A DNA stretch of 64,000 nt from Convolutriloba macropyga (Eukaryota): the NCBI RefSeq assembly GCF_964194025.1, contig NC_134476.1, positions 24,924,001-24,988,000 of the forward strand, written 5' to 3'. Positions within the stretch are counted from its first letter, which is position 1, and each line of letters starts with the position of its first letter. The position numbers and the translations under genes were made by a program. The notes under the pieces were generated by a model. The model had not been told where the DNA came from and did no database searches. It saw only the letters and a program-made list of their open reading frames with translations. Positions 4,231-58,042 of this stretch are shown piece by piece.

Positions 4231-5484
4231 TTCAAATATCAGGAAAAAATAGTGAAAATTAGTAAGAATTTGAGTGCTTTTGCATGGATTACCAAAACAT
4301 ATAGCTCTTAAAATGTTCATAAAAAACACTTATGTCTTGCAAAAGATCTTTCTCAACTTTAACCAGTCTCAATTGTAGAAAAATGACAAAAAACACACGA
4401 AAAATTTCAACATTTTGGGCTCAAAAACTCCTAAAAATGACATTTTAACCTTAAAATACGGCCTCCTCAGTAGCTTCACAACACTAAGCACTTGATGGAC
4501 TACTAAACGCGGCTAAGGGCCTCTAATGAAACTTAATGCCCGCTGGGCGCTACCTGTTTAACACGTTCCATGGACGAAAAATCAAATCGGTCAAGCGAAA
4601 AACCGCATAAAAAAGACCAACAGGACTAATAAAATTGCTACAAACTTCTTTTGAGAGCAATTAAAAATATCAATTGTGATATTTAAAAAAATAATTAGCT
4701 CCATTTTCTCTCAATTTTCAATATGGACTTAATAAGATGTTTTTGAATCTTCAATGAGGAAAAAGGTTACTCTGAATCTTTTTTTTCTTAAGAAAACTGC
4801 TTTCAAGTTATTAAGACGTAAATCAACTAAAGTCGGACGCACTACTCTCGAACGACAGGCAAGCGAACAATTTGGACAGGGGTATAGCTACAGAAATATT
4901 CATGGTAAACCCTCTGACTGCGAAGGGGCTCAAACGCGCAACCTAGTGGATACGAGCCTGCGATATTGACCGCTACTCTACAAAGGTTTTGTACGTTCAG
5001 CGCTCACATTCAATTTGATTTTAGCAACTGACTCACTTGAAATTCAAATCACTCAAAAAGTTTAGCAAGAAAACGTCACTCAAAAAAGGTAAAAAATAAA
5101 GTGTTCTAGAAGAAAACGGACAAACAAAAATTTTGCGTAAAAGACGATCACGTTCAAAATAATTGGTTCAAACTTCGATTGAGGGCAATTGAACAGTTAA
5201 ACATTTCGAAAAATTAAGATAATTTCTGAACACATTGTCAATAGCAGTATAATGCCACTTGCGCTTATCTTATTGTTATGGCAAAGAATGATGTCAAAAC
5301 TCGTCCACTTTTGTCCACAACGGCCCTCAGAACAGGCATATAGGTTTTTCCAATGACACATTGTGAAAGATGGATCATGTTGTTCTTGTTGTAGCTGTCG
5401 ATCAGAGATGAAATTAGCACGAAAATTGGGCGGGATACAGCCGCTTATTGCCATTTTTGACTGGTACCTTTGTAGAATTTGCAT

Positions 5485-8400: not shown

Positions 8401-8860
8401 GATTATGCAATAGCCAGGAGGGCTTTTGAGGTTGGATTTTTCATTGAGGTTGGTCTCCTGGTTGGCAGCTATTTGGATGTTATTTTCTGCATCCAGTCTA
8501 TGATGTTGTCTACTTTTTGTTTGAGACCATTACCATTCAGTTGAAGAATGTTGACGTCTTTGGTCGTGAGTGGGTAAATTTCGCCTTGTATTTGCTTCTA
8601 TTATCTTGCACCAAGTCCAGCGCTTACAGTCAAACTTGTTGCTCCATTGCTCTAAGGACCGTAAGTTTCTGCAATTCAGGTGTACCCATACACCGCGGCC
8701 GCACCAGACGCCGTACTGATTCCAGGCCGGGGTTTGTTTCAATGATTCCGAGGATGAAAACCGTTTCTCGCAGACTGTGTATAGTGTGTATGGATCATGG
8801 GAGCGGTTGCCCGCTCGTAGCTCTGCCACATAGAGGCGTTAGTACTAGAGAACTGTGAAG
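5485..8860 (-). mobile_element. Decayed non-LTR retrotransposon (LINE): PHD-like finger, APE endonuclease, RT, C-terminal CCHC, no RNase H, (TAT)n tail
   Basis: WCGRGVWVHLNC...FDC (PHD-like); ILQLNGNG, QET, NDFNA, LGSD (EN); QHGFKPEYST, ALDLNAAFDSV, QGVPHGDVFSPMLFNAY, HADA, LLGVSFD (RT); CPKCDIAPHGVIHIINC. Many stops and frameshifts; TAT/TAC repeats at 5485-5515. Ends are approximate. Confidence 0.9.
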
Positions 8861-9265
8861 GACGAATCATCAATTTAATTCCTGCAGAAAATCTTTCCAA
8901 AATTGCACCCATTCCTTCCTCAATTTATGAAAGCTACTTTTAGGGTACTGAAGAATCTGGATAGTAGTACAAACATTTAGTAGTACAAACCATAATAACT
9001 AATATTCTGCGCCTTCATCCTTGAGATAAATTTTTGATTTTGTTGAAACGACTTCAAAGCTTCCATAAGACAAAAAATTGTGCTCAAAAAATTTTCCTTG
9101 CGCCAGCCTTTAAATTCAGTTTCTGAGCATTGTTCCCCAATTGCTTTTAGTTTAGAATTCGTATTTGGTGGCATAAATCGGCGAAACAGTTTGATCATGT
9201 TTTTTTTACTTACTACAAACTTAGTTTCCAAAATCCAAGGAAAATAATATACCCCGAACTTCACA

Positions 9266-9804
9266 AACATACCCGGCAGATTGCTGGAAAATAGCCGCCG
9301 TTGATTCCAATCAGCATGATTGGGACTGAAAGAAGAGATATTGAAAAAAAAAGATTTTTGTACAAAAACGATTTTTAAGTCCAATTTATTTTGATGGCAT
9401 TTCGTAGTTGAACGTAACGTCCTTCTGTTTGTTAGAGAGAGGCTACAGGGGCTACTATCAATACCAATAAGCATTAGAGATGGTAAATAAGACTTATAGG
9501 AACGACGTTCAAATAGCGGGCATCTAAAATTGGGCTTAATGGGTTTATCCCGTTTATACTTCTGACTTCAATTTTTTATACAGACTCTGTTCATTTTGAA
9601 TTGCTTTGCTGAGCAACTGATGTTCAAAATCACTTTTAGCAGAATGAGAGAAGAGAGAAACTAGCCTAGAGAGGTCAAAAAGATATCACGCAAAATGTTG
9701 AAAAAGCGGCAAAATGAGGTAAAGCGAAACATTTTTTTATTCGACGAAGTAAAAAAAATAGGAGCGCTATAATAGCCGGCTGAGAAGATGAGGGTGGCTA
9801 TTAA
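9266..9804 (+). repeat. Dispersed repeat family B (~530 bp). Close copy at 16450-16982, diverged copy at about 15893-16320
   Basis: Colinear from aacatacccggcagattgc to ctgagaagatgagggtggctatt. Confidence 0.88.
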
Positions 9805-20389: not shown

Positions 20390-20953
20390 TATCATGTGCT
20401 CAAATATTATGTATTCGCTAGTGGTTGTTCATTTTGGTTGAAAGCAATTCTAGTTGATCAAATTGATTTGTTTACTCGAGTAAAATCTTTCAAATTAAAA
20501 CTTTTCTGGCAAGAACGAATACGTTGCTGAATTAACGATGGTTGTTCACAGCATTACAGCTTCAACAATTTAGCGAACAAAAATTGTGCTGAGCACCTAT
20601 TACAATTTAACGATTTTTCTGTTATTATTCACTATTGGATAGCTTTAGCGGTTTGGATCTTCGAATGGGTGAGTCGACAATCCCTTCGACAGCTGAAGAT
20701 CTTCTCTGGTAAAAACTTTATTTCAGTAATACAACTGTTTATTAGCGAGCAACTATTTTGTCTGTTACAATTTTAATATCTTGTTATTTACATTCAAATA
20801 TAGGCAAATATTAAACAGATTTTTCCAAAGTTGATTGGAATTCAGTAGTAAAGTTCAATTATGTAATAATGTGAACAAAATGATGGCATAATAAGAGTTA
20901 GTTAAATAACAGTAAAAGGTCAACGTTTGAACTTGGGTTTGAGCTACGTCATA
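20390..20953 (-). repeat. 3' LTR
   Basis: Direct repeat of 33065-33628, preceded on the minus strand by the polypurine tract. Confidence 0.96.
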
Positions 20954-20964
20954 CTCCCCTCCTC
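20954..20964 (-). promoter_or_regulatory. Polypurine tract
   Basis: GAGGAGGGGAG directly upstream of the 3' LTR. Confidence 0.85.
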
Positions 20965-21279
20965 AGGGAGACTTCCGGGCTCGAAAAATTTCGATATCCA
21001 TCATTCAGCGACGAAGCTCAAATCCGTAAAAGAGTAGAAGTTTGCCACAGTTCCATACCAGTTAGAAAGAATAAATGCGAGTAGAAAAGAATAAATGATC
21101 GTCCAACAATCGTACCATATGATAAGATCAGAAGAAATTGCTCCACTCCAACCGAATAATCGTTAATGAAAAAGTGATCTGTCGCAGTATGGGAGGAACT
21201 ATTGGTCTGCTGCAAGGGTACTCCAATTCTTCTTCAGTTTGGTAGTGCACATTATACTTTACAATACAACTGCACTAAT

Positions 21280-23665
21280 TCAAAGATCAGTTTCAATGCG
21301 TTGAGAACAAGTTTGTGAGAGACATGGGTCTGAATTTGATTCTACGTTTTTGTTCAACGTAGATAATGAAGTGCGTGAGCGAGATTTACTTCTCGGTCTA
21401 GTGGCTTCAGTCAGAATGTGATAGTTGTCTTTCCATTTTTGTGGAATGGCATCAGCAGCAATGTTGTCCTTCACACTAATGACTGGTTTGACACCAATGT
21501 CGTCATTTTTTGATTTGAGGAATGATGGAACAAATTTACGAATGATCTTAAATCTGTGATAAAGATAGAGAAATAAAATGTGTAAAATTATGTTCCCAAT
21601 GAAAACAATAACTGTAAGCGACAAAGACAACTTTAATGGGACGTATTCTTTGAATTCAGACACAAGTGTAGGCTTTAACGTTCTCATATCAGCAGTGATT
21701 GGTCTCGCAATCTGAACCAAGTCATCACTTTATTTTTGGGCTTCGAATCAGCTCTGCTCTCACTTTTCTCAGAAGCTCTACTCCCGCTGTTGTTCGAGAC
21801 TCGAAGTAGGGCATCTGATCGATTTGTGGAATTTCGCTCATCAAATGCTCTAAGGGATCTGGTAGCTTAACGTCGATAAGTTTCGCTTCAACTCGGTCGC
21901 AGCTCTCGAGATCGGATCGAATCTTCAAATTTTCTCCAACAATTATTTGATAGTTGCATTCGACTGTTATAATGCATATCTTGCATCCCGGAATTATTCT
22001 GTTCCATGACTTATGTACAGAATCAAGACTGTACTCACGCATTTCATAAGAATCTGAAGCCGAGGTGATTAGCCAAATGCCGTATCCTAAATTGGCAGCA
22101 TTCGCTTGCGTAGGAAGGTAAAATACTTCCGTGTCGCAAGTCTCCGCTGCTTTTAGGGTCGAACTAACGAAAAGGGTTGCCAGGCAAGAAGGATGATTCG
22201 TTTGGGTAGCGATAGTCTCATGGCATATTCGGTATCTAGCTGATCCTAGACATGCCTCAAACTGATCTTTTGAAAGTGTTACCGATTCCATTTGATCCTC
22301 TGATATGGCAAGATAGGGCGCTTCTATGACCCATCGGATTGCCATACGAGGTTCTGGCTGTGGCATCGGAACTATTTGCGCCTGGTACGTAGAAAAAACA
22401 GTTTGTCGCGAGGCCAACGGAATGGCAAGTGTAAGAACTAGTCCTTCATCCAAAGTCACGACATCTCGAAGAAGTTTTGCGTCATAATATGATAATAAAT
22501 CTGTTGGGGGTATGGCTAACGACAATCTGCTACCACTTAAAGACTGGTCAGCAGCGACAGATTTCAGTATAGCAAGTAGAGATTCTTTGGGTACCAAGGA
22601 CATTGGTAAATGTTGTTGTAGTAACGTTGGGATGGCATTTAGGACATTCATGCGATACGTGTAGAGAGCTGTTCTATAGCTTTTGACGTCCGCATAGAGC
22701 ATTGAGAGAAGAGAAGCTGCTGTGTCGAAGTTGAAATTGAGCTGTTGGTTCGAGAACAGCATTTGGGTGCAGTCTCGTAGAATGTGGAAGTTGCCCTCGA
22801 AAACTTTAAATTGCTCCTCGATGATAGCCCAATTTTTATTCTGTGTCTCTATCATCTGGTTTTGTGTCTCCCTAATCTCTTTTAATTCATTCCCAACTAA
22901 GAAAAACTTTTCATCAGTTGCAGTTTTTATCTGCATTACGTAGTCCGTCAGTGATGAAGTGAAACTGTATAGTCGATCAATATTAGCTGCATTCTCTTTA
23001 GCTCTGTCCTGGCATGATCCAAAAATGCCAGAGAGACCGCATCCGCCTCCATTTCCCATGAGGACACCAGAACCAAAGAGCCCTATTCCAGCCATAGCAG
23101 CGACTGCGACATGTGCTCCTCGTTTAACTCGGTTGTTTGTTCCTCTGATTTCATCACTGTTTTGAAGAAAGGTTGAAGTTTCGTTTCGAATGAGTCGAAC
23201 ATCCAGACTCGACTTATTGACTTCTTTCTCTATCTTTGACAAGATCCAATCAACATTGAAAGATGAGGCATTTCCATTAAAACTGGATGAGAAATCAAGT
23301 GGACACTGGATTGATGGTAATTTCCACATGTCATTCAAGCGTCTGAGTAATGTATTCAACTCTGGTTTTAAGGAAAAGTTGTACGATGGAAATGGAACCA
23401 TGAATTGAACAGGGACGAACTTTTCAGCCAAGAGAATTTTCGTTTCTTCGTTGAAAATTATTCCTTTTTCGAGTACGTCATCAAAGTTGCGCTCTTCTGA
23501 TGATCCAGCAGTATGAATATACATTAGGATGAGTTTAAGGAATAACGTGGCAAGCTTCATCATTCTAAACATGTGAACATTTGTGACTTTGTGTTTCAGG
23601 AGTGGAGTCATATGAGAAGTGTTACAGGTTTTAGTATAGAGAAAAGATATGCAGGTTTTTATCAT
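21280..23665 (-). pseudogene. env: Env-like class I fusion glycoprotein (baculovirus F / errantivirus env-like), one frameshift at about 21730
   Basis: Signal peptide MMKLATLFLKLILMYIHTAGS, furin site RVKR followed by fusion peptide GAHVAVAAMAGIGLFGSGVLMG, heptad repeats and a Cys-rich ectodomain. The TM segment LSLSLTVIVFIGNIILHILFLYLY lies in the downstream frame (21720-21280). Confidence 0.88.
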
Positions 23666-23680
23666 AATATTGTCAGTTAA

Positions 23681-23793
23681 CAGTACCGCCGACTGTGGCG
23701 TTAGGTGTGGGAACTATCAGGTTCACAAGTTATGTAGGTTTGTAAGGTAATTGATTCAGTTCAAAGCAGTACCGCCGACTGTGACGTAAGGTG
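23681..23793. repeat. 27-bp direct repeat between the divergent env and antisense genes
   Basis: cagtaccgccgactgtggcgttaggtg (23681-23707) and cagtaccgccgactgtgacgtaaggtg (23767-23793). Confidence 0.85.
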
Positions 23794-23900
23794 AAAAACA
23801 AGTTTCAAAATATGCAGTTGTGCATTAATGTGTGCAGTTTTTATAATTTTTAATCAAGAAGGCTACGTGAACTCAACGGAGTATATTCTTCAGAGTAAGA

Positions 23901-24217
23901 ATGGATGAGTTCGTAACTATGGCAATAATATTGTTTTTGCGTACGCGCAAAACTAACAGCACCATTCTTACGACGAATGAAAAACGAAAGGAGTTCCGCG
24001 ACTTGTGTCGTTTTTTTGAAGAGAAAGACGGCAAATTGGTCGCAAAAAGCGATCATTCGGTGGTTCCCACCCTTGCAGAAGTTGAAGCAGCTCTCCGAGA
24101 CGAGCATTACAAGGGGTTTAGCCATCTGAAGACTCGTTCGTCTCTCCGGGAGGTGTTGACGGGAAAATCTTGGTCCTACCCACCGAAACTTGGGGGATTC
24201 ACTCGGCTTGTAGAAGA
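23901..24217 (+). CDS. Antisense accessory gene of the LTR element, exon 1 (integrase-like H2C2 domain, N-terminal half)
   Basis: ATG ORF ...KRKEFRDLCRFFEEKDGKLV...VVPTLAEVEAALRDEHYKGFSHLK...WSYP...LVE ending at a consensus donor GA|GTGAGT. Confidence 0.75.
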
Positions 24218-24341
24218 GTGAGTTCTCTTTCAAGTTGATATTTTATAACAAAAAGTAACTGCATTAAAAGAGTTAAGGAAATTGTTCTAAAAGTAGAGAA
24301 AGCGTTGACTATCTGCGTAAACTGGAGCTTTGATTATTCAG

Positions 24342-24598
24342 GTTTGTCAGGACCTGTCCTCATTGTTACACTGAGGAGAACCAAAAAAGGCGGTTTCTTT
24401 GTACGGCTGTTTCGGAAAATCGCAAGAGAGCTTGGTGTGAACAGTTTGGTTTCACTTTTGTGAAAGATGCGGTTAAATACACCAACTCTGTTTGTGAGCT
24501 CGGGACTCCGGAACCAGCCGGGAAACCAAAATATGCTGAGGTTCATGGACAGTGTATTTTCTCTAGCATTTATTATCTGATTGTGGGGAAACGTTCAG
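24342..24598 (+). CDS. Antisense accessory gene, exon 2 (CxxC completing H2C2; OTU-like catalytic Cys motif)
   Basis: Acceptor ttattcag|. The in-phase join gives VEEFVRTCPHC. The frame stays open to AEVHGQCIFSSIYYLIVGKRS; donor G|GTTAAT. Confidence 0.72.
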
Positions 24599-24663
24599 GT
24601 TAATCAGCTTGCTGTTTTTTTTTTAAATTCATCATTGTTTCGAAAATTCTACATTTTATATAG

Positions 24664-24880
24664 GTGCGAAGTCAAAGAGTGCAGGAAAATCTAAGAAGAT
24701 GAAATCCTCTCCCTGCAATAAATTGAGGATTGCTACAGGGACTTTTATGCTGGAGAGCAAGGCTTTTTCATCTTTTTGTGCTCTCAAATACCATGTGTTA
24801 TGCAATGACTTCGAGATCACCACAATCGGGATAATGTAGGCCCTGTAGGAGAACATTGGGTTCGAGTTAAAATTTTTTTG
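24664..24880 (+). pseudogene. Antisense accessory gene, exon 3 (remainder of OTU-like domain, apparently frameshifted near 24809)
   Basis: Acceptor attttatatag|, in phase. Reads ...CNKLRIATGTFMLES...KYHVLCND, then stops at 24837-24839, while the -1 frame reads RDHHNRDNVGPVGEHWVRVK. The 3' end is uncertain. Confidence 0.5.
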
Positions 24881-25618
24881 CTTTCATTTGATCATTCTAG
24901 CTCACTGAACTTGGTGATTCATTTAGATTCTTGGTCTGGCTTGGCTATTGGGGCTAGACATTTACGTCTTTTGGGAATATTCTTCTGTTTCGTGTTGGGA
25001 GAGGTACATGCACTCTCCAACAAGTCAAAGTGGGGGTCCAGCACTTCTCCTGCATGTAAAACACAATGAGCATTACAATGCTTACCATTGTGAACCCCTA
25101 CTAGAGTTCCCGTCAAGAGAGTATGTCTTTCTCTATTTTTTTTACTCTTTTTTTGAAAAATTAATCATTTTTTTTTGAATTGAAGTACTGAAGGTGAATT
25201 TGATTCCTCCGGAGTCAACGGAGAAATTGGTCCTCGCGCTGCGAAGCGTTTGAGGAGTGACTCGGACTGAAAGTTGAGTTATGAGAAACTTATATTGAAT
25301 AAATTCAAATTTTTCATTGAACTCAACAGTTTTGACCTCATCACATTTGCGAAGAAACACTGAAGACATCTCAGAATACTCAATCCTTATCGGTTTTTCT
25401 CTCTACAGCTTTGCGGGTGATCATTTCGACGGTTTTTAGTGGCAAAAAGTGCAATTTTTCTCGAAGAAATAGGTGAATATAAAAAGCGCAATGAGATAAA
25501 GGTCAGAAAAAAAGTTCTTCCAAATCAGTTCAAACTTATCGGAATCGAATCTACATGCAAAAATAAGGTCGCAGACTAACTAAATTGGAGAAATTTTTTT
25601 TTTTGAGAATTTTTTTTT

Positions 25619-26033
25619 TCAAACAAAGAAATGAATTTCAAGTGATAACGAGCTGAAAATACCAAGAATAATCTTGCAGACGTGAGCCCAATCTAGACCC
25701 GAGTAGGATTCGAGCTGCTTCATGGCAATTTTTTCCACATTTTTGTCCTGAATGTGAAACTTTAATGTGTTTAAGCCTGCTATCAGGTTTGAATAACTTC
25801 CTGGTTCGAACTCTGTGTCTCTAACAATGAGGTTAAAGACAAACCGCTTCTGAAAGTTATCAAAAACAGATATCACTGATCCTTTGGCGTAACTTCTTGT
25901 GTCTTTTACGTTATCAAAAGAATTGATATTGAAAAATTCTAGGTTGTGAAATTTGTTTTCATTAGAAGTTGTTTGAACTATTGTGTCTGTAAAGTGTCGA
26001 ATATCTGATGTATGGTAATAAACCTGCAATTTA
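25619..26033 (-). other. TARG1/OARD1 (Poa1p/DarG-like) macrodomain at the integrase C-terminus
   Basis: RFVFNLIVRDTEFEPGSYSNLIAGLNTLKFHIQDKNVEKIAMKQLESYSGLDWAHVCKIILGIFSSLSLEIHFF aligns by eye with TARG1 [75 protein letters not shown]. Confidence 0.8.
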
Positions 26034-29000
26034 TTTGCCTCAAGTGTGTTCATGTTGTTAGAACTACTCTGCTCCTTTGCTTTTCTTATTCTGGTTCTAC
26101 AACCAACTGCTAATTTTGTGATCGGTGACAGTTCCTTTGCCGTTGCGGCTGTTCTCGGAGTTGAAGTACTTGTTCCAGGTGCATCAGTTTCACCTAATTG
26201 TTGATTTTTCACTTCTGTGCTTCTTTTGACGTCCAGTTTTGTTGCTCTAGATTCAGCTGCATTAGGATTTTTGATTAGACGTTCCATGTTTTTTCTATAT
26301 GACTGTTTAATATTACTTTGTTTTTCCGATTTCTTCAAGTGCGAATGTGGAATCAACATCTTTCCATCTATTGTACGAACCACATGCGGGTGATCCTTGT
26401 TAGCAGGTGCTGGAGAACGTGTTCCTTTTTTGAATTGTACTTTTCGAGGTTGGGTCTTTGATTGTCTCTCATTGTCTTCAAATAAATTGCGTCCTGTTTC
26501 ACGCTTAATTGATATTGGTGTTTCTGTTTTCTCGTACTCATCGGATTGTGCTTCCTCCTGCGTATTGGCGGGCTCTGTCGTGGTTTGCTGTGGCTCTCTG
26601 TCTGCGTTGTGGCCGTTGAATTGTTCAAATTGTTCAGTTTCACTTTCATTATTGACTTCTGGGAAAAATGGAAGTTCGGCAAAGTTGTCTACGACTTCGT
26701 CATTTTCTTCTATTGGAATGTTAGCCATCTGCTCTCCTTGTAGGTCGCCAGCGTCTTCTGCCGGTTCGAAAGGCTGAGCAGGGACATGGGGAACTATTGG
26801 AGCCACAGCAGGTGCAGGCAGTGCTCCTGCTGCGGCCATTGGGAAAGAGAGTGTGACTGTTGCAGGTGGTTGCTCTGTTTGATCTTCTTGATTTTCTTGT
26901 GGCACGTCGTCAATAAAATGGTGTTCAAGCAGTTTTGGAATTTGTTCATCGAACAATTCTGGTTCTTGTCTGTTTTTTCCCAAAAGAGGATCAGGAACGA
27001 ATTTGTTCGGATCAATGTCATCAAGATCTGATGACTTCACGTTTGTTGTATAGGGTCGAAGTCTTATACGGTGTACGCATTGTGTGAACAAAGTGCCAAC
27101 ATTTCGAATCAGGTAGTTTGAATTTGTTAGTACTCTCTCAATTCGATACAACGGCAGCCAAACAGTCATTGATTTATATCCAAAGTCAGATTGATTCATG
27201 AGCTTTGGGTTAAGTAGCAGGCAAAACGAATTAAGTGCTAGAGGGCTTGAAAGTGCCTTTTCGTCATAGTATGTTCGATACTTATGATAAGCGTGTATTA
27301 ATTTTGACTTATTCTCGGAAAATTTTTGCTGCATAGCATCTTGCAATTGGATAACAAAGTCAGATTTCGGATCAAGATTTTTCAGATTTTTATTGTTGAA
27401 CCTCACATCCAAGGGTTTAATCGGTTCACGACCGTGAAAAATTGATGTGGGTGTGCAACCTATTGACGAATAATATGAGGTATTATGAATGTAGGTTGAT
27501 AGAGGCACATATTTGTGCCAGTTGGACCATTGTTCATTAGTATTGAGTTTAAGAATTCTTTTCAGCGCTCCGTGTGCTCTCTCAACAACACCTACAGATT
27601 GCGCGTGCTTAAGTGTGGCGTGTTTAAGCTTTACTTCAAGCAATTGTGCTAACTCGTGCATTAGATCGGATACGAAACTACTGCCTAAGTCTGACAAAAT
27701 CGTATGCGGTATATAACTGTGTTGGAAAAATATTGATGTGAGCTCTTGTGCTACTCTTTGTGCGCTTACATTAGTGAGTGGTACAGCAAAAAGGTATTTG
27801 GAGAAAACATCAATACCAGTCAAAGCATACTTATAAATAGTTCCACGAAGTGGACCGACTAGGTCGATTTGAAGCATGTCCCCGGGAAAGGACTGTAGTG
27901 ATGATAAGGGTTGCAAAAATGTTTTTAGCGCTTTATTGGAAATGAGTTTTGTCTGTATACATGTTAGGCAATTTTTGATAGCATTTAGAAGATATTCTGT
28001 AAACCCAGGAAAATAAAATCTTTTTCTGAACTCAAAGGCAGTTCTAACTATTCCTATGTGTCCAGCAATTTTCGAATTATGCAATCTATAGATTACCTCT
28101 TTCCAAAGGTGTTTAGGCAGGCAGTACTGGTTGTAGAGAACTTTGCCAGTGTCATCAAAAAACTGTCGATACAGAACATCATTTTCAATTGTTAGTCTAT
28201 TGAATTGCTTAGCGTATTTTTTAAAAAGAGTGCGAATGATGCGTACTTGATATCCTCAACAGTGTTATTTTGTTTCCAAAAGATAACACGCTTTATAACT
28301 TCATCTAATGACTGCTCATGTTTAAGGTCGATAGGATTCAAGCGTTCAGTCAAGTCGTGCAAAAAATCGGCAGGATCATGCATCAAAACTGCATTGAGTT
28401 CTGGACCTTTTGATTTCAAACGAATAAAAGTTTGTATTTCATCGTCGTCGGTTTTTGAACTTTGCTCCTCAATTTGTCTTAAAATTCCATCTGGTATTCC
28501 AGATTGCTTCAACTTATCAAGCATTTCAATGCTGACGTTTGCTTTTTGTTCAAGTAAACACTCGATATTTGCCAATGAACTGAGTGATACGTCAGGCGTT
28601 TTGGCTGTTGACTCAATTTCTATCTCTCTAATTGGCATTCTATCCGTCAACTTTAGTTTCATTGTTTGCGATGGGTCAGTTTGCGACCTCGAAAGGAAAT
28701 CGGCAGCGTAATTTGCTCTGCCAGGAATGTGAGCGATAACAAGGTTGTATGACAAAACACGGTCAAGAAAATTCCATAGCGACGGTGGAATACTTTTTGC
28801 TTGGAAAAATTGGGTTAAACTTTTGTTGTCAGTAAGGACTATTACAGCTTTTTCCGTACCCCAAAGATAATGAGAAAAATGCTCAAGGGCAAAATAAAGT
28901 GCAAGAAATTCCTTATAGTAGACTGAGAATTTAAGCTGAGCGTTATTAAACAGTTTTGAACCAAACGCCACTGGCGCATAAGTTTTTCTGTTCTCATTTT

Positions 29001-31265
29001 TGTTGTTTTTAACATAATCCTCAATCATCAGTACAAAACCGGTGCCAAAATAACTGGCATCGCAGAGTAGAACATACTGCAATCCTGGTTTAGCTAATCT
29101 TAACGTTAAATCAGTTGCTTTTACAAGATCGGTTTTGACTATTTCAAGATGTTTTTCGTGTTCCTCTGTTAAGACAGGTTCAATATCCTTTCTCAGTAGC
29201 TTGTAGAAGGGCATGAGTTTATCTCCCAAATTGGGTATAAAATCACGCCAAAACTGGACAAAACCAACTAAACGCTTTACCTGTTTTGGTGTTCGGGGTA
29301 ACTTGATTGTTTTGAGAAACTTTTCGATTCTTTTGGATTCTGGTTGTATACCTTCTGGTGTTATAATTTTTCCAAGAAACTTGACTTTTTGCGTGGCAAA
29401 TGTACATTTATTTGGTGAAAGTTTAAGACCTGATGTTCTTATGCATTCAAATATTTTTCTGAGACTTGGAATCAACTCATCAAAATTTTTTACTGCGCTT
29501 CCTATGTCATCCATATACTGAGTGCAGATGTTTGCTGCAAGACAAGAATCTAAATAGTGCCTGATAAATGAACTGAATCCTGTTACGGACTTGCTTAGAC
29601 CTTGTGCTTAACACTTGTATGCATAGGTGCGAGAGGAAAAATTAAAGGCTAAAAGTTGGACTGAAAGATCATCCGCCATTTGAACACAGTGGTATGCCTG
29701 CGAACAATCAAGTTTTGTAAAAAAGGATTTTCCTGCAGAGTGATTTGAAGCATCGCTCATGTTTGAGATTGGAAAATTACTATTGATATAGTCATTTCTT
29801 AACAGATGATTGATACGCCTTAAGTCAATAAGAATTCTCAGTTTGCCAGAATCTTTGCGTTGCGCAAATATTGGACTACTGTACTTTGAATGTGATAAGG
29901 TCGTGATCAAATTATAGTAGTGCATCAATGCAAGTTCTACTGTGAGCTCATCTCTCAGGTGTATTGGCGTTTGTTGACTTTGAACATAAACAGGAAGGTT
30001 ATGCTCAGGTGTAAGTTTGATCTTTAACTCTGTGTTATAACCTACATCGAAACGGTGTTTAGCAAATATATCAGAAAATTCCACTAGTAACTTTTCTACC
30101 TGACATTTTTGCTCAAAGGTTAAAACAGAATTTTGCCAATCGAACTTTTCAAGAAAAAGGTCACGATCTTTTGCGTTATTCTTGGGGTCAATTTTTTCAA
30201 GATTTTGAAAGTGCAGAATTTGATCATAAATATCACGCTGCAAAGGAGACAATTTGCTGGGACTGTCACAGGTTTCAGGGGTCGGAAACCAAAGTTTTTC
30301 ATATTCTGGTTTTGGTCTGGTTTGATTCAGAGGCTGAAAGTTTTTTGTTTGAACAAGTTGATTAATTTCAGCTTCCAAGTTTTCGTGGCTTTTCATTTTT
30401 GCCAAAGCAATAAGCTGCGGGTCTACATTAACTAGCTTTTCTGTTTGTTTTTCATTCAAAATTTCAAAAAAGGCGACCTTTGAATCAACACATAGGGTTA
30501 TTTTGTGGTCAGTGATATTAAGTGCTGAAATAAAAACTCTACTTTTCTCATCTAATGTACTCAAGGATGATGTTAGAGCTATTTCCGTTTCGTTTTCAAA
30601 CTGAGTGCAAGGTATTATTACTCCACTGCAATTTTCTAAATTAGGAAAGCTCTTGTCGAGATAACATTCAAGCAATTGATGTGAGTTGGGCTGTAGTTCG
30701 TGTTTTTTACTCAGTAATATTGGAATTTTCTTCAGTTTTTTAGATGTTTGCCTCTTTTTATCTTTTGGCTTTATTTCATTAAGTTGTATTGTCATTTCAG
30801 GTAATTTCAATAAATTATAAGCGGGACTAATGTCGATAAAATTTTTCTTGAAGAAAGGGTTTCCTAAAATGACGGTATTCATTGTTGGAAGAACTAAAAA
30901 ACTATCACTGAAATGATGATTGCCAATTGTGAATTTTACTTTGATTTGCTGTTTTACTACAACTGGGGCACTTGAAGCTAACTTAACAGTGTTATAAGTG
31001 GGAGTTTCTACCTCAAAACAAATTTGTTTTTCCTCGAACTCATTTAATAAGGATAATGGGATAGCGTTTGAGCAAGATCCTGAGTCAATTAAAGCTCTTC
31101 GGCGAAGACTATTATCAAATTTTATTCTAACATAGGAGAGAGTTTCTCCTTCTAGAGGGATTACTGCGCAAATATTATCCTCAATCTGCATGTCTGAGTC
31201 TAATGAAGTATTTACATGTAAAGATTGATTTGATGAGCTGGTATCTAATGGAACTTGTGGCTTAT

Positions 31266-32495
31266 CTAGTTTTTTGAAGACCGTTGAAACGGAAAATTTG
31301 TTCCACCTCTGCGTCCACGTGATCGCATTGAGCAATTAGTTGCCAAATGATTTGGATAACCGCAGATATGGCAAATGATTTGGGCATATTGAGAAACAGG
31401 AACATGTGTTTCCTCAATTGGTTGAAAAACTTGAACAACTGGTTGCTCATTACTTGCTGTTTGTTGTTCTTGGATCGGTTGAAAGTTTTGCGGCGTTGTC
31501 GGCGCAAACTGTGGAGCATTTGGAGTATATTGGAAATTATTTTGAGCAGGGAATGAGAACTGGTTGTTGAAGTTATTGAAACCTCTGTATCCTCTCGATC
31601 TACCATAGCCTCGAAAATTTCCTCGACTTCGGTAGTTTGAATTGTTATATGAACCTCTTTGTCCACGGTTTGAGCCTCTAAAACCATTTCCCCGAAACTG
31701 ATTTCCAAAATTCTGACCTTGTGAAAATTTTTGCTCATCGAAACGTTTATTTTGCTCCTCGACTTGCTTACTTAAAGCGCTCATTCTATTTTCCATAGAT
31801 TCCTGCGTTTGGCTAAGTTTTGATAAAGCATTTATCAAATTATCTGAAATTGTTGGACTCACTTCGTTAAAAGCTCCGTCAATATAGTCCTCTTTTTTGC
31901 AAAGGTCGTGGATGGTCAGTTGCTTCCTAGCCAAGAGGCATGAATCCTCAACTGTTGTGTTGTCTGGTTGTTCCAACAACTTTGCTCTAAGCCAGCTAGG
32001 CATACATTTTTTGAAAAAGCGCTTCGTCTGATTTTGTCTCTCTTGTTGTGCAAAACGTAAATTCTCATCATTTCTAGCATCTACGGCATCTTGAGCCGCC
32101 TGATCCGCTCCGGGTGGATACGCCTCGGGTATGGGATCAGGATAAGCTTTCAAAGTCATATTTTGCAGGGACACAAGAAAATTTTCTGGTGAATCAGTTT
32201 TTGGGTAGAAACGAACATTTTCTAACTTGATTACATGTAACTCTTGCAACTGTGGGTTGCAGAAATGATTTCTTAACGCCGTTAAACTTAGAGCTAAATC
32301 ATTGCGTGTCGCTTCTGGTAAAGTCTGGAAATATCTTAGAGCTGCATCTCTCAGATGCAATTGCAAAAAGTTAGCCTGTTGGGCTCCTGCTACTGCTGCA
32401 ACTCCTATAATGCTTCTTAAAAGATGCTCGAACTCTCGAAAACTTTCTTTATCTGTACCGCTGAACGGTTTTAAGGCAATGTTAGGTTGTGCCAT
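31266..32495 (-). CDS. gag: Gag (capsid-like region, coiled coil, RG-rich segment, CCHC zinc knuckle)
   Basis: 409-aa ORF after the PBS; FSG...LHLRDAALRYF gypsy capsid pattern; CHICGYPNHLATNC knuckle. Confidence 0.92.
   Translation of the reverse strand: MAQPNIALKPFSGTDKESFREFEHLLRSIIGVAAVAGAQQANFLQLHLRDAALRYFQTLPEATRNDLALSLTALRNHFCNPQLQELHVIKLENVRFYPKTDSPENFLVSLQNMTLKAYPDPIPEAYPPGADQAAQDAVDARNDENLRFAQQERQNQTKRFFKKCMPSWLRAKLLEQPDNTTVEDSCLLARKQLTIHDLCKKEDYIDGAFNEVSPTISDNLINALSKLSQTQESMENRMSALSKQVEEQNKRFDEQKFSQGQNFGNQFRGNGFRGSNRGQRGSYNNSNYRSRGNFRGYGRSRGYRGFNNFNNQFSFPAQNNFQYTPNAPQFAPTTPQNFQPIQEQQTASNEQPVVQVFQPIEETHVPVSQYAQIICHICGYPNHLATNCSMRSRGRRGGTNFPFQRSSKN
31269..31275 (-). promoter_or_regulatory. 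gag-pol -1 ribosomal frameshift slippery heptamer A AAA AAC
   Basis: TCA AAA AAC TAG at the gag stop; the -1 frame is the open pol frame (FKKLDKPQ...). Confidence 0.8.
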
Positions 32496-33046
32496 TTTAT
32501 GTGCTCTAAATTTAAGTGTTTTAGCTTTGTAGTGTAGTTGAGTTGGTTGGACAGTGGTTCAACTTGCCGAGGAATTAAGAATTTTTAGTGTAGTCTCTTG
32601 TTTTGATGGCCTTAGACTTATTTAGATTCAAGATTTGAGTAAATGTAAAGGTTTCAAGCTTGATTATTTCTGAGAATCATATTCCTTACTGTGATCAATG
32701 TTTCAAATCAGTTTTGATGATTCAAATCAACAGAATGAAATCAGGAACAGATAGAGGTGTGGCGTTATCATAAAAGCACTGTATTAATTCACTGCACAAA
32801 AGTTGAAATCTAACGAACCCTTGTAGTCACTATGTTGTTGCGTCTGCCTATCAGCGTCAGCTCTGGCCACAGGGATATTGGTCACATGAAATCACAATTC
32901 CACCAAGCTGCAGTTCTCACTGTACTGATTTGAAACTGTACTGATTTGGATGGATACTGCTCGTTGTTCTGTTTTAGCCCTTCAATTCCGAAGTTGACAG
33001 TGGTGAGGATCTTTTCGAAGGTATTGGCTCACTATCCTGTCGATTG

Positions 33047-33064
33047 TCGTCCGTTCTGTCACCA
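33047..33064 (-). promoter_or_regulatory. Primer binding site
   Basis: TGGTGACAGAACGGACGA directly after the 5' LTR; TGG is complementary to tRNA CCA. The cognate tRNA was not identified. Confidence 0.8.
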
Positions 33065-33628
33065 TATCATGTGCTCAAATATTATGTATTCGCTAGTGGT
33101 TGTTCATTTTGGTTGAAGGCAATTCTAGTTGATCAAATCGATTTGTTTACTCGAGTAAACTCTTTCAAATAAAAACTTTTCTGGCAAGAACGAATACGTT
33201 GCTGAATTAACGATGGTTGTTCACAGCATTACAGCTTCAACAATTTAGCGAACAAAAATTGTGCTGAGCACCTATTACAATTTAACGATTTTTCTGTTAT
33301 TATTCACTATTGGATAGCTTTAGCGGTTTGGATCTTCGAATGGGTGAGTCGACAATCACTTCGACAGCTGAAGATCTTCTCTGGTAAAAACTTTATTTCA
33401 GTAATACAACTGTTTATTAGCGAGCAACTATTTTGTCTGTTACAATTTTAATATCTTGTTATTTACAATCAAATATAGGCAAATATTAAACAGATTTTTC
33501 CAAAGTTGATTGGAATTCAGTAGTAAAGTTCAATTATGTAATAATGTGAACAAAATGATGGCATAATAAGAGTTAGTTAAATAACAGTAAAAGGTCAACG
33601 TTTGAACTTGGGTTTGAGCTACGTCATA
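33065..33628 (-). repeat. 5' LTR
   Basis: Direct repeat of 20390-20953 with about 6 substitutions by eye. Followed on the minus strand by the TGG-PBS. Confidence 0.96.
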
Positions 33629-38595: not shown

Positions 38596-41500
38596 AGTGT
38601 ATCCTACCTCCGTTTATCTCTTATATGTCCAGTCAGATTTTTTCAGATGCTAACTTAAAAGTTCTACGTTTTGCGCGACTTAGACCTCTAAAAATTTAGG
38701 TAGACAACACCCTAATATGCTCTTCGGCCTTAGTTAAGCATACAAAAACAAGTTTTCAACAATATTTGTAATTTTGAGAGTCGCACTAATGGTAGCAAAT
38801 AAAGCTCTATATATACATTACAATTCGCACCATGGGCACACAAGTTATGGTCAAAAACGGGAAATCCCTTACCATAAATAATATTGAATTGAAAGTCAAC
38901 AACTTTTGACTTCTTCAATAAAATCAACAAAAATAAAGCGCATCAAGGAAAATAGGTTGAGGGAATGGAAATCAGGAAATGAAAGGGTTTGGGAGGACGG
39001 AAATGTATTTGGGGGGAAGAAAATGTTTGCAAAGCTATTTAATGTTCAATTGAACAGCTCGAAGAGTCTTTAGTATTCATTATTCATTCAGTTCTTTGGT
39101 TTGTATTTCAGGACTCTAATGATGTTTTTATATTTCATCGTCAATCATTTTGTTCTGACATCTCGTTTCGAATCAGCTTTTCTGCATTCATTCCTGCTAT
39201 TAACTGAATAAATTGTGGGTCTGCCGCCTTATTTATACTTATTGTTTATTCATTCGCGTGAATATAGCTTATTGATGGCACACGACTTAGCTCACTCTCA
39301 AAATAATATGTCATTTCTCCAAAAATGAGTTTGCTAGTTGAACTTAATAGACAGTTAGGTTAGTTGAGGATAATATCTTAACCTAATTGAAGCCTAATTG
39401 AGGGTAAAATTAGAGCAGATGATTGTGACAGATTTTAGACATGGTCGAAATTCTAACAAATCTTCACTTCCAATTTTTAGGTCTTTCTTTTGAGACTACA
39501 GCCTTGAAGGCCAAAGCAGCAATATTATCAATCTGTCAGCTCTGTTCTTTTATTCGTTCATCTTCATTTTAATTAGTTTCCATTTAGTGAAGAGAGTTTT
39601 TCTGGTATAATTGGTAACAAAGAACAATTCGAGATAGAATACCAACAAATTGAAAGCTGCTGTCTATTTTTTAAAAAAAATATAACAACCAAAATCATTA
39701 GGTAGACCGTCAAACTATTATAGAACAACTCGCCCAAATCCCAGCGCCAGCCCCACTTTTTCTTATAAACAAAAAGTGTTCAAATTTCGTAGCTTCAAAA
39801 AAGGAAAACTCAGCCTCTAAATAGGACAATAAGCTGAAAATCAATAACAGTTAGCAGTGTACTCTCGGGATCTCTGATAATATACCGCACTAAGACAAGT
39901 CTCCACAGACATATGTCTAAGCCCGGCTTCCTTGTTTTGACATTGCTTATTGACAATTACCGCAATTGAAACATTGAGTAAGGTAACTCAATAACTAATT
40001 GACCCTAAGTGTATCCTACCTCCGTTTATCTCTTATATGTCCAGTCAGATTTTTTCAGATGCTTACTTAAAAGTTCTACGTTTTGCGCGACTTAGACCTC
40101 TAAAAATTTAGGTAGACAACACCCTAATATTTATGCTCTTCGGCCTTAGTTAAGCATACAAAAACAAGTTTTCAACAATATTTGTATTTTTGAGAGTCGC
40201 ACTAATGGTAGCAAATAAAGCTCTATATATACATTACAATTCGCACCATGGGCACACAAGTTATGGTTAAAAACGGGAAATCCCTTACCATAAATAATAT
40301 TGAATTGAAAGTCAACAACTTTTGACTTCTTCAATAAAATCAACAAAAATAAAGCGCATCAAGGAAAATAGGTTGAGGGAATGGAAATCAGGAAATGAAA
40401 GGGTTTGGGAGGACGGAAATGTATTTGGGGGGAAGAAAATGTTTGCAAAGCTATTTAATGTTCAATTGAACAGCTCGAAGAGTCTTTAGTATTCATTATT
40501 CATTCAGTTCTTTGGTTTGTATTTCAGGACTCTAATGATGTTTTTATATTTCATCGTCAATCATTTTGTTCTGACATCTCGTTTCGAATCAGCTTTTCTG
40601 CATTCATTCCTGCTATTAACTGAATAAATTGTGGGTCTGCCGCCTTATTTATACTTATTGTTTATTCATTCGCGTGAATATAGCTTATTGATGGCACACG
40701 ACTTAGCTCACTCTCAAAATGATATGTCATTTCTCCAAAAATGAGTTTGCTAGTTGAACTTAATTGACAGTTAGGTTAGTTGAGGATAATATCTTAACCT
40801 AATTGAGGGTAAAATTAGAGCAGATGAGTGTGGCAGATTTTAGACATGGTCAAAATTCTAACAAATCTTCTTTTCCAATTTTTAGGTCTTTCTTTTGAGA
40901 CTACAGCCTTGAAGGCCAAAGCAGCAATTTTATCAATCTGTCAGCTCTGTTCTTTTATTCGTTCATCTTGATTTTATTTAGTTTCCATTTAGTGAAGAGA
41001 GTTTTTGTGGTATAATTGGTAACAAAGAACAATTCGAGATAGAATACCAACAAATTGAAAGCTCCTGTCTATTTTTTAAAAAAATATAACAACCAAAATC
41101 ATTAGGTAGACCGTCAAACTATTAGAGAACAACTCGCCCAAATCCCAGCGCCAGCCCCACTTTTTCTTATAAACAAAAAGTGTTCACAATTCGTAGCTTA
41201 AAAAAGGAAAACTTAGCCTCTAAATAGGACAATAAGCTGAAAACCAATAACAGTTAGCAGTGTACTCTCGGGATCTCTGATAATATACCGCACTAAGACA
41301 AGTCTCCACAGACATTATGTCTAAGCCCGGCTTCATTGTTTTGACATCGCTTTTTGACAATTACCGCAATTGAAACATTGAGTAAGGTAACTCAATAATT
41401 AATTGATCCTAAGTGTATCCTACCTCCGTTTATCTCTTATAAGTCCAGTCAAGATTTTTTCAGATGCTTACTTAAAAGTTCTACGTTTTGCGCGACTTAG

Positions 41501-42820
41501 ACCTCTAAAAATTTAGGTAGACAACACCCTAATATTTATGCTCTTCGGCCTTAGTTAAGCATACAAAAACAAGTTTTCAACAATATTTGTATTTTTGAGA
41601 GTCGCACTAATGGTAGCAAATAAAGCTCTATATATACATTACAATTCGCACCATGGGCACACAAGTTATGGTCAAAAACGGGAAATCCCTTACCATAAAT
41701 AATACTGAATTGAAAGTCAACAACTTTTGACTTCTTCAATAAAATCAACAAAAATAAAGCGCATCAAGGAAAATAGGTTGAGGGAATGGAAATCAGGAAA
41801 TGAAAGGGTTTGGGAGGACGGAAATGTATTTGGGGGGAAGAAAATGTTTGCAAAGCTATTTAATGTTCAATTGAACAGCTCGAAGAGTCTTTAGTATTCA
41901 TTATTCATTCAGTTCTTTGGTTTGTATTTCAGGACTCTTATGATGTTTTTATATTTCATCGTCAATCATTTTGTTCTGACATCTCGTTTCGAATCAGCTT
42001 TTCCGCATTCATTCCCGCTATTAACTGAATAAATTGTGGTTCTGCCGCCTTATTTATACTTATTGTTTATTCATTCGCGTGAATATAGCTTATTGATGGC
42101 ACACGACTTAGGTCACTCTCAAAATATTATGTCATTTCTCCAAAAATGAGTTTGCTAGTTGAACTTAATTGACAGTTAGGTTAGTTAAGGATAATATCTT
42201 AACCTAATTGAAGCCTAATTGAGGGTAAAATTAGAGCAGATGAGTGTGACAGATTTTAGACATGGTCGAAATTCTATCAAATCTTCACTTCCAATTTTTA
42301 GGTCTTTCTTTTGAGACTACAGCCTTGAAGGCCAAAGCAGCAATTTTATCAATCTGTCAGCTCTGTTCTTACATTCGTTCATCTTCATTTTATTTAGTTT
42401 CCATTTAGTGAAGAGAGTTTTTATGGTATAATTGGTAACAAAGAACAATTCGAGATAGAATACCAACAAATTGAAAGCTGCTGTCTATTTTTTTAAAAAA
42501 ATATATCAACCAAAATCATTAGGTAGACCGTCAAACTATTATAGAACAACTCGCCCAAATCCCAGCGCCAGCCCCACTTTTTCTTATAAACAAAAGTGTT
42601 CAAATTTCGTAGCTTCAAAAAAAGGAAAACTCAGCCTCTAAATAGGACAATCAGCTGAAAGCCAAAAACAGTTAGCAGTGTACTCTCGGGATCTCTGATA
42701 ATATACCGCACTAAGACAAGTCTCCACAGACATTATGTCTAAGCCCGGCTTCATTGTTTTGACATCGCTTTTTGACAATTACCGCAATTGAAACATTGAG
42801 TAAGGTAACTCAATAATTAA
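38596..42820. repeat. Tandem array, three ~1.41-kb units
   Basis: agtgtatcctacctccg recurs at 38596, 40008 and 41412; the units are nearly identical. Confidence 0.95.
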
Positions 42821-45800
42821 AGGTGAAAATCGTGATCTAAGTAAAAAAAACTGATCGAAAACTAAAAAGAAAAAAGCATGCCATAAAGTATTGTATTGAT
42901 ACAATCCGAACAGTTGAATGAAAAAACGAAAATATTGTGCCCAAGTAGCAGACTAAATGACAATCACAGCAGCCAAACAGACAAACGTAGCTTCACAGAA
43001 TCAGAAAAAATAGCATTCCAAGTGTAAATACTTTTATGATCAGTGTGTTAAAACATAAAATTCCCTTGAGTATCTGGGTCCAAAATTTAGAGACAATACT
43101 GATTTAAAAAATTATTGTATGGACAGCACCATGCCAAAAAAGTTACCTAATTCTTCAGCTCCAAAAACATGGAAGTATGAAAATATTCCAAAAACTTCAA
43201 ACAAGAAAATCACAGCGAATTTGTTTTCCTCTTCATACTTATGAATGCCAAACCAAGTTTTCATACTCAATTTCATATAATAAGTAACCTGCATGCTAGC
43301 AGAAAACTTGCTGCACATACAGGGGCAAACAGAAAAGAGAAATAAAAATTGGAAATAGCCAAGAGTACAAGAAATTTGCATATGTTCGCTATGTCCGCAA
43401 AATCAAAAATTCAGCCACTAAAACATACATTGAAAAGTTTCATTGCACCCAACAAAAAAAAAACAAATTTCATAAAACTATGAAAAGGTTTTGATCATAA
43501 TTTTATGAAAATCTGATAAGTCATATTTCTCTGACACCAGACACTATCCAGTAACCAATCTTCCAGCTCTAAGTTCCAAATTGCCACAGTTAATAAGAAA
43601 CCGTTCAAAAATTAATTCACCGGCTCGAGATACAACCCAGTAACACGCCCACAAGTCCCAAAAAGTTATTGCCTCCTAAGGATCAAAAATCTAAATTAAA
43701 AAAGAGCAAAGTATGCAAAAGACCTCAAAATTGGCAAAAATCACTATCATTTTAGGTGTTTAAGTTTGCATTAAGTTTGTGATTAAGTTTATTCATTTTG
43801 ACTTTGTGTTTAAGTCTAAACAATTTAAGTCTTTAAGTTTGTATTAAAACAACATAAAGCACGAAAAAGGGACATAAAAACAGATTATAGATTCCAAAAG
43901 ACCTTAATAAACATCGAAAAGCGTTAAATTAATATCCAACTAATCAAATTCCAGAAAATGTCAAAGACGATGAAAAATTGAACTTTTTGGGCTCAGAACC
44001 ATGTGACCTTTTCATCTTGAAATCAGCCTACCCAGCAGTTTAAGCACTCTAGGCACTTGAATTAAACTACTAAAGCCAGCTCAAGTTTTCCAGCGAAACA
44101 ATGCTCAATGGGCGTTACCTGTTATTCCGTTTTGAGAGCTCTTAAGTCAAGAACTTTTGAAAACAGAAAACAAAAGAAACCCGTAATTTTTGTTCCTTTG
44201 ATTATAGCCTGATCAGAATCAACATTTTAACCTGCCTTCTCCTTGATATCAAATTTTGACATCTCGCTTCAAATCAGCTGCTCTGCGTTCATAGTTTAAT
44301 TGATTGGTTAAATTCCGGGTCTGACGCCGTTTTTACACTTATTAGAGCGAGTTGTTTATTCATTCGCGTGAACTCACCAAAAAAAAGTCATTTCTCTAAA
44401 ACTGACTTGCCAGTTGAACTAAATTGTCGGTAGGGTCAGTTCAGGATAAAATCTTATCCTAAATGAAGCCAAATTGAGGCTCAATTTAGAGCACATGTGT
44501 GACAAATTATAGACATAGCCAGAATTCTATCAAATCTTCCGTTCCCGTTTTTTTAGGTCTTTATTTCGAGCCAGAAGTCTATCAAATTTTCCGTTCCCGC
44601 TTTTTAGGTCTTCCTTTTGAGACTAAAGCCTCGGAAGCTAAAGCAGCAATTTTCAATCTGCCAGCTATTTTCATTTACTTGTTTATCTTCATTTTATCTA
44701 TTTTCCATTCAGTGAAAAAAAATGTTAAGAACAGTTCGAGATAAAATACTAACAATTTGAAAATTTCTGTCGATTTCAAAAAAAAACAATCACGACCAAA
44801 ATAATTAGGTCGACCGTCCAATTTTCATAGAGCAATTCGTTAAAAATCACAACGGCAGCGAAAATTTCTCGAAGTGAAAAAAAATTTCTAATTTTGTAGC
44901 ATCAAAAAATGGCAAACTCAGCCTCTAAATAGAAGAATAAGCTGAAAACTAATAACAGTTAGCAGTGTACTCTCAGGAGTTCTGATAATTTACCGCACTA
45001 AGACAAGTGTTCACAAACAATATCTCTTAGATCCCGAGCTTCATTGTTTTCACATCGCTTTTTGACAATTAGCGCATTTTCGCAAATCTGTTGAACACAT
45101 TGAGTAAAGTAACTCAATATAATCAACGGTGAAAATCGCGATCTAAGTAAAAAAAAACTGATCGAAAACTAAAAAGAAAAAAGCATACCATAAAGTATTG
45201 TATTGATACAATCCGAACAGTTGAATGAAAAACTGAAAACATTGTGCCCAAGCAGCAGACCAAATGACAATCACAGCAGCCAAACAGACAATCATAGCTT
45301 CACAGAATCAGAAAAAAAAGCATTATCAAATAAGCACTTCAAATAAGAATATCATTGCCAAATTGTTTTCTTCAAATTTATGAATGCCAAACCCAGTTTT
45401 TCTTACTCAATTTTATATAACTACTAACTTGCATGCTAGCAGAAAACTTGAGTCACATACAGAGTCAAACAGAAAAGAAATAAAAAGTTGGAAATAACCA
45501 AGAGTATAAGAAATTTGCATATGTTCGCTATGTCCGTGAAACCAGGAGTTCAACCACTAAAACGCGTATTGATAAATACAATTGCCCCCGACAAAGTGAA
45601 AAAACCAATTCCATAAAAATATGAAAAGGTATGAAAAATTCTGATAAGATCGTATTTCTCTGAAGCTAAAAAATATCCAGTAACCAATCTTCCAGCTCTA
45701 AAGTTCCCAACTGCCACAGTTCATAATAGGAAACAGTTCCAAATTAATTCATCGGCTCTCGATACAACCCAGTAACACACCCACAAGTCCAAAAAAGTTT

Positions 45801-57493: not shown

Positions 57494-58042
57494 GTTAGTT
57501 CCGGATTTGTCCAAAATCTCAAGAATCTCATTTTTTGCAGATTTTAGTTCCAGTACCTTGAGCAATTATTGGAACACTTGCGCATAACGTGAAGAGAGGA
57601 TATAGTCTACTATGTACCCAATCAGGTGAGGAGTGGAAAGATCCGATGTTTGCAATCAACGCGTGAATGAGACAACTCATACCAACATGATTTCTTTCCT
57701 AACATCCTTTTGAGCAAGGCCAAACTTAATTGCTAAATGAGTTTTGTCTCATAAAATTCCTTAATGTGTATCTGTTATTCAGGCCCCTTTTAAACATTTC
57801 AGTCATTCTGTGACTCAATAGCATAGACCCATCAAATTAAGAACCCAATTTATCCACCTTCATAGCGTTATAGGCACTCATGAAAACAGCAACTTGTCTT
57901 AAGCAGCAACCTCAAAAAAGAACGATTGTGGTAACTTTTGCGGTAGTAAAAGTAACTTTTGGGATACTAGCAAATAACTTTTGGGCAAGTATTAATAACT
58001 TTTGCAGAAGAAATAACTCGCTCTTTTTTTGTTTGCTTCCAG

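Follow-up and report, generated by a model that had tools for sequence, protein, structure and literature searches.

A TARG1/DarG-type macrodomain with a degenerate ADP-ribose pocket at the Pol end of Ty3/gypsy elements of Convolutriloba macropyga

Organization of the element

The window, as the whole stretch of 64,000 nucleotides analysed is called here, holds on its minus strand a full-length LTR element of ~13.2 kb (20390-33628), in which gag, protease, reverse transcriptase (RT), RNase H and integrase are followed by an env-like gene, an order that assigns it to the Ty3/gypsy type (Table 1). The LTRs, a TGG-initial primer-binding site adjoining the 5' LTR, a purine tract and the 5-bp target duplication ATGGT, which flanks both LTRs on their outer side, agree with this assignment. 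LTRs usually, though not universally, end in TG...CA; those of the window and of nearly all copies examined (L071-L102) end in TA...TA, with a CA end in one copy. One frame of 878 codons (25619-28255, minus strand) holds Integrase_H2C2, rve and, as residues ~740-878, the terminal macrodomain considered here. In Pol of the window copy, RT is interrupted by a stop near 29608 and the reading frame shifts near 28200-28255, so that this copy cannot make the macrodomain as part of Pol, and its env-like gene shifts frame near 21725. The env-like ORF of ~660 aa with its hydrophobic tail is conserved, has homologues in related loci and matches no Pfam family.

Two A-runs (25591-25619) lie directly past the macrodomain stop, and L027, L034, L049 and L060 likewise have A-rich runs past the stop. 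Elsewhere in the window, tandem arrays, in which the repeat unit is ~1.4 kb or 2.1-2.3 kb long, occupy 38600-53200, and four frames of 164-214 codons are found at 5197-9567 (minus strand) and 57874-58506 (plus strand). Elsewhere in the genome, L061-L067 are several copies with frames of ~2,500 codons (1,178 in L066) that include an OTU domain and possibly belong to another mobile element.

Table 1. Features of the element in the window and accessory genes of related loci (locus coordinates are preceded by the locus name)
Feature	Position	Strand	Basis or remark
3' LTR, 564 bp	20390..20953	-	purine tract adjoins, ~20954-20971
env-like gene, 662-codon frame	21280..23713	-	hydrophobic tail in other frame, 21280-21729
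Exchangeable cassette: macrodomain and accessory region	23800..26050		divergent version in sister copies on near-identical backbone
Antisense multi-exon accessory gene (predicted exons)	23901..25271	+	His/His-CxxC zinc-finger-like part, then Cys-box and His-box motifs
TARG1/DarG-fold macrodomain, degenerate ADP-ribose pocket, C-terminal ~139 aa	25619..26038	-	profile, structure, alignment
Predicted retropepsin cleavage site ahead of macrodomain	26039..26059	-	rank 1 of 349 positions, junction matrix
Acidic-then-basic low-complexity linker, 339 aa	26039..27055	-	between integrase and macrodomain
Integrase: H2C2 zinc domain, rve core, C-terminal part	27056..28255	-	Pfam
RT C-terminal part and RNase H	28192..29607	-	Pfam; shift to integrase frame near 28200-28255
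Protease and RT N-terminal part, ending at stop within RT	29608..31335	-	open frame, Pfam
gag, one zinc knuckle	31266..32558	-	zf-CCHC weak (Pfam E 0.12)
5' LTR	33065..33628	-	558/564 bases same as 3' LTR
JmjC/JmjC-like genes	L030:2736-3335, L049:7142-7753, L028:1190-2275, L033:1403-2617, L035:1835-2671	antisense	
Small membrane-protein ORF	L023:9517-9852, L030:1990-2283, L027:8574-8909, L103:7671-8000	antisense	no Pfam family

Fold and pocket of the macrodomain

The initial annotation had read the end of the integrase frame as a TARG1/DarG-like macrodomain behind a long acidic-then-basic linker, whose length, put there at ~330 aa, comes to 339 aa. Profile comparison, which it had proposed as a check, gave a divided answer: Pfam Macro does not match the window domain, which as a single sequence resembles TARG1 weakly (E 0.045), whereas a profile built from nine degenerate relatives matches TARG1 with an E of 5e-17. 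Structure prediction and superposition, proposed as well, bear the assignment out, as an AF2 model built on 15 sequences reaches a pLDDT of 89.6, its best Foldseek match is TARG1 (4j5q; E 2.5e-10, TM 0.83), and VIA-align gives Z 17.9 for DarG, with an rmsd of 2.2 over 136 residues, and Z 16.6 for TARG1. By this model, the window domain is an ALC1-like (TARG1/DarG) minimal macro fold. When homologues were sought directly with this part of the 878-aa frame, none turned up among 108 candidates. Contigs of four public runs from one study span the macrodomain with few substitutions and no indel listed within it, so that it is not an assembly artefact.

The altered motifs described by the annotation recur in the alignment with TARG1, where ITK is replaced by IVR, IGCGLD by LESYSG and the GAGIA loop by other residues. 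By its residues the window domain is probably not a TARG1-type hydrolase, as both the catalytic Lys84 and the catalytic Asp125 are missing (TARG1 numbering anchored on PDB alignments, dyad positions from excerpts of PMC9411070). All seven intact rows of the alignment keep G43, K84, G123 and D125; in the clade of the window, G43, G123 and D125 are each kept in none of ten rows, while Glu or Asp stands at G121 in all ten and Gln replaces a conserved His in seven. K84 is retained in six of these degenerate rows, with Arg in the window and three other rows devoid of the Lys, and the adenine-side Asp in seven.

In the domain tree the degenerate rows group together as a single clade (SH-aLRT 98 and 99), which the integrase tree supports weakly (81 and 61), all trees being quick trees with support by SH-aLRT only. 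G121E also occurs in L116/L122 and L118/L119, two lineages that both trees place within the intact families, with G123E in addition in L116; in a further lineage of three copies (L111/L113/L117) loop 1 was lost instead. By alignment and trees, an acidic residue in the diphosphate loop has thus been gained in at least three lineages, and in two of the three the gain of E121 is accompanied by the loss of D125.

An acidic residue at G121 would block the diphosphate site and with it the pocket. In human TARG1 itself, G43E, I44E and G123E abolish ADP-ribose binding and activity, and G123E also abolishes recruitment to DNA damage, while G43E and G123E still bind RNA through basic surface patches (excerpts of PMC5928194). 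Since the binding glycines are lost and the TARG1 glycine mutants do not bind, ADP-ribose binding has likely been lost in the window clade, with the caveat that DarG without the Asp and SCO6735 without both catalytic residues are active (PMC9411070).

Distribution among retroelement families

A genome search for the domain gave at least 114 matches, 150 of the 495 candidates having been scored. As the annotation had implied for related elements, integrase and C-terminal macrodomain share one frame in 20 of the 41 regions picked for the domain; five others (L041-L045) represent a separate gypsy family, present in high copy, in which protease and RT are separated by an intact TARG1-like domain, and the remainder are frame-broken copies. 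Independently of the domain, 20 loci were picked on integrase similarity alone, previously unsampled ones being chosen from 150 integrase matches; 19 of them carry the macrodomain, which is missing only from a copy with an internal deletion. At this Pol position, the TARG1 motifs are intact in sister families (E 3e-18). In the degenerate families, several copies are nearly identical to one another and have long Pol frames without interruption.

From representative proteins, the degenerate profile retrieved 2250 matches, of which the domain sequences of P0030-P0062 and of those >400 aa among the best 150 were examined. Domains of the clade's degenerate type occur only among the top few of these examined best-150 matches and resemble this genome's own families; the other examined matches have intact TARG1 motifs, some with degenerate tandem copies. 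In P0023, P0092 and P0177, RNase H is separated from integrase by an intact TARG1-like domain, P0092 having a second, degenerate copy, and in P0161 a TARG1-like domain occurs together with gag. Tandem TARG1-like domains, an intact copy followed by a degenerate one, are seen in P0035, P0044, P0051, P0092 and similar database proteins.

Selection and cassette exchange

The degenerate domain is under purifying selection, with a dN/dS of ~0.2. Between the domains of L030 and L034 (131 codons), dN is 0.17 and dS 0.75, with a 95% CI of pN/pS of 0.21-0.46; the corresponding interval for the window versus L060 is 0.31-0.56. Besides L030 and L034, three other degenerate pairs give intervals <1. Compared by dN/dS, the domain (0.23) is constrained close to the linker (0.30) and much less than the integrase (0.06), and fold maintenance alone could give such modest values. 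Among the degenerate families the domain is 25-51% identical, compared with 73-82% for the integrase, and the acidic residue at position 121 is invariant in spite of this divergence.

Compared with the L060/L025/L055 family, the window element has an identity of ~92-100% in gag-pol as far as ~26400 and again in env below ~23400, while identity falls to ~60% over the macrodomain and 40-55% over the region after it. Between the window and L060, dS amounts to 0.06 in the integrase, 0.04 in env and 2.55 in the macrodomain. Among 15 loci compared with the window domain, seven match it at at least 97%, one at 81%, four at ~65% over part of it and three not at all; the upstream linker is matched by 14 of the 15 at 87-99.6%. 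L026 and L056 repeat the pattern of window and L060, in L028 versus L033 only the downstream accessory part is swapped, and the pair L030 and L034 has no such cassette swap. These alignments show the macrodomain within a cassette exchanged between near-identical backbones, the divergence of which could be old variation borne between conserved recombining flanks without any arms race.

Behind the macrodomain, the cassette of the window contains an antisense gene with Cys-box and His-box motifs, which is conserved between pol and env in the window, L022, L023, L026, L027, L039, L060 and L104 with invariant G-x-C-x-F and H-C columns in the alignment. The motifs resemble, as we presume, those of an OTU protease; single exons have no Pfam or PDB match to support this putative identity, for which the atlas lead is 0.82, and the gene is absent from the 27 OTU matches in the genome. 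In sister families, the same slot is filled by an antisense JmjC or JmjC-like gene, of which that of L030 matches Cupin_8 above the Pfam cut-off (E 2.5e-6), that of L049 is below the cut-off and those of L028, L033 and L035 have no Pfam match. The accessory versions of L028 and L033 are just ~26% identical on near-identical backbones, and a single-sequence fold of the L033 protein reaches a pLDDT of 36.8. The type of accessory gene does not track the integrase tree. The contigs of the four public runs contain no splice joints, which has no bearing on expression.

In many families, a small antisense ORF (~100 aa) with a signal-like start, conserved cysteines and a membrane segment lies just upstream of env; it is not seen in the cassette of the window.

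Release from integrase and insertion targets

A short hydrophobic-Asn-small-hydrophobic pattern is found in four places between Pol domains and a further time directly ahead of the macrodomain, and these words would represent protease sites. The four upstream junctions, which are themselves predicted, supplied 27 words to train a junction matrix. With this matrix, a site 9-14 aa ahead of the domain ranks first in 7 of 13 linkers, the window included, and is not top-ranked in the other six; after merging of near-copies and removal of two short linkers, 3 of 9 compare with a chance of ~6.5% each (p ~0.017). As the site is missed in 6 of 13 linkers and the pattern had first been noticed at this very place, before matrix scoring, the evidence for release is moderate. 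With a protease-like site ~10 residues ahead of it, the macrodomain is likely cut from integrase by the element protease.

The 15 insertions with both ends are flanked by 5-bp duplications, 12 of them exact and three with one mismatch, which comprise 14 different words. No common target sequence or locus is found among them, a result at the level of sequence and locus with which a chromatin preference is compatible. The macrodomain is probably not an anchor that steers insertion.

Discussion

To account for the fold and position of the domain, its loss of motifs, its retention under purifying selection and its exchange as part of a cassette, we propose, with a probability of roughly one half, that a TARG1-type macrodomain without its pocket residues is kept by selection, likely released by the protease and likely active in free form, as a non-catalytic accessory protein with a host factor as its binding partner. 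The non-catalytic or repurposed role considered in the initial annotation appears likely. To judge from the intact sister families, an ancestral element would have acquired at its Pol end a TARG1-like eraser, then still active, which may have removed host ADP-ribosylation from element proteins or nucleic acid, and which would be freed by the element protease and carried in the particle. The diphosphate loop then gained an acidic residue that would have blocked the pocket, while the fold was kept and divergent versions were exchanged between backbones, the new job likely being a protein-binding or decoy role against host defence. Such a role, if this is what the domain has, would explain the swapping of divergent versions and their persistence on one and the same backbone.

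Other functions have to be weighed against this accessory protein. A remodelled enzyme or altered-ligand binder, with a rebuilt pocket acting on another type of ADP-ribose linkage or on some related ligand, could explain why K84 persists in 6 of 10 rows, Gln in 7 and the acidic residue 121 in all 10, as well as the coupling of E121 gain to D125 loss in two of three lineages, and SCO6735 is a precedent for activity without the dyad (PMC9411070); yet this is rather unlikely with both diphosphate-loop glycines gone in 10 of 10 rows, Arg84 in the window and three others without Lys, since such glycine changes end both binding and activity of TARG1 (PMC5928194). Less probable is a passenger under weak constraint, kept just so that the end of Pol folds and escapes degradation and having no partner of its own. 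It would agree with a dN/dS near that of the linker, with the gap in identity between domain (25-51%) and integrase (73-82%), and with the fact that Gly to Glu or Asp is a single-base change. On the other hand, one stop codon could remove a terminal passenger, yet 19 of 20 integrase-picked loci keep the domain, the exception being internally deleted, and the acidic residue has remained invariant across such divergent sequences.

That the domain binds RNA or other nucleic acid independently of the pocket, in packaging or reverse transcription, is suggested by the TARG1 mutants G123E and G43E, which keep RNA binding via basic patches (PMC5928194); the calculated pI, however, ranges from 5.2 to 9.5 among degenerate rows (6.3 in the window), so that there is no conserved basic character, and we consider this role improbable. 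Least probable is the proposal of the initial annotation that the domain stays on integrase as a reader and tethers integration to ADP-ribosylated chromatin, or to another chromatin feature. The frame in common with integrase, the chromodomain position, the adenine-side Asp kept in 7 of 10 rows and the targeting by the chromodomain of the gypsy element MAGGY (as cited in bioRxiv 10.1101/2021.11.30.470311) speak in its favour. Against it stand the loss of the binding glycines, the predicted cleavage site just ahead of the domain, the 15 insertions with varied 5-bp duplications and no common target locus, and the L041-L045 family, whose intact TARG1-like domain is placed far from integrase, behind protease and ahead of RT.

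A more far-reaching and as yet tentative proposal concerns the cassette as a whole, which may be a recombining set of captured modification erasers, in which the TARG1 macrodomain is combined with an antisense JmjC or zinc-finger/OTU-like gene. A host defence based on ADP-ribosylation would repeatedly have driven the transition from enzyme to pocket-blocked decoy, with divergent alleles side by side on one backbone.

With TARG1/OARD1 and DarG, the domain shares the minimal macro fold (TM 0.83; Z 16.6-17.9), while the window clade differs in the absence of G43, G123 and D125, in the acidic residue 121, in Arg84 in the window and in being encoded in the Pol of a retroelement. The same macrodomain class has repeatedly been captured by LTR retrotransposons, as in the gypsy elements P0023, P0092, P0177, P0161 and L041-L045, where it has other polyprotein positions and intact motifs; there is therefore precedent for the capture of a macrodomain by a retroelement. 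Fish epsilon-like endogenous retroviruses also have a macro domain as an extra function (Basta et al., 2009, as cited in PMC4977317), but are, by this citing description, true retroviruses with the macro domains in additional ORFs. The divergent gypsy-like Tor elements of Oikopleura, with env and in some cases a gap between pol and env, are similar in layout, while 'macro' is absent from the main text that describes them (excerpts of PMC4402516). The chromodomain of chromovirus integrases is likewise an extra C-terminal domain in the integrase frame; its fold is another one, and the window domain is set apart by the 339-aa linker, the predicted cleavage and the lost ligand pocket.

The macrodomains of the SARS-unique domain are not known to bind ADP-ribose. 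Macrodomain II in complex with Paip1 (PDB 6yxj; VIA-align Z 9.2) illustrates how the macro fold can serve protein binding, although as an analogy only, since it belongs to another macrodomain class and another virus. In titles and the starts of abstracts, a literature search found no description of gypsy Pol with TARG1-type domains, of the repeated disabling of such domains or of such a cassette; supplements, repeat databases and most subscription journals were outside its scope, and an earlier description is therefore possible.

With their swapped antisense accessory genes, the elements have a variable accessory region like complex retroviruses. Macrodomains of RNA viruses antagonise ADP-ribose-based immunity, and if the tentative proposal on the cassette were true, it would mean that invertebrate retroelements and PARP-type immunity are engaged in an arms race, in parallel to the macrodomain and deubiquitinase kit of RNA viruses. 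In one genome, intact and independently disabled macrodomains are found at the same place in related retroelements, all of them expressible as domains of ~140 aa, which provides a natural series to ask whether ADP-ribosylation restricts LTR retrotransposons and what a pocket-blocked macrodomain does.
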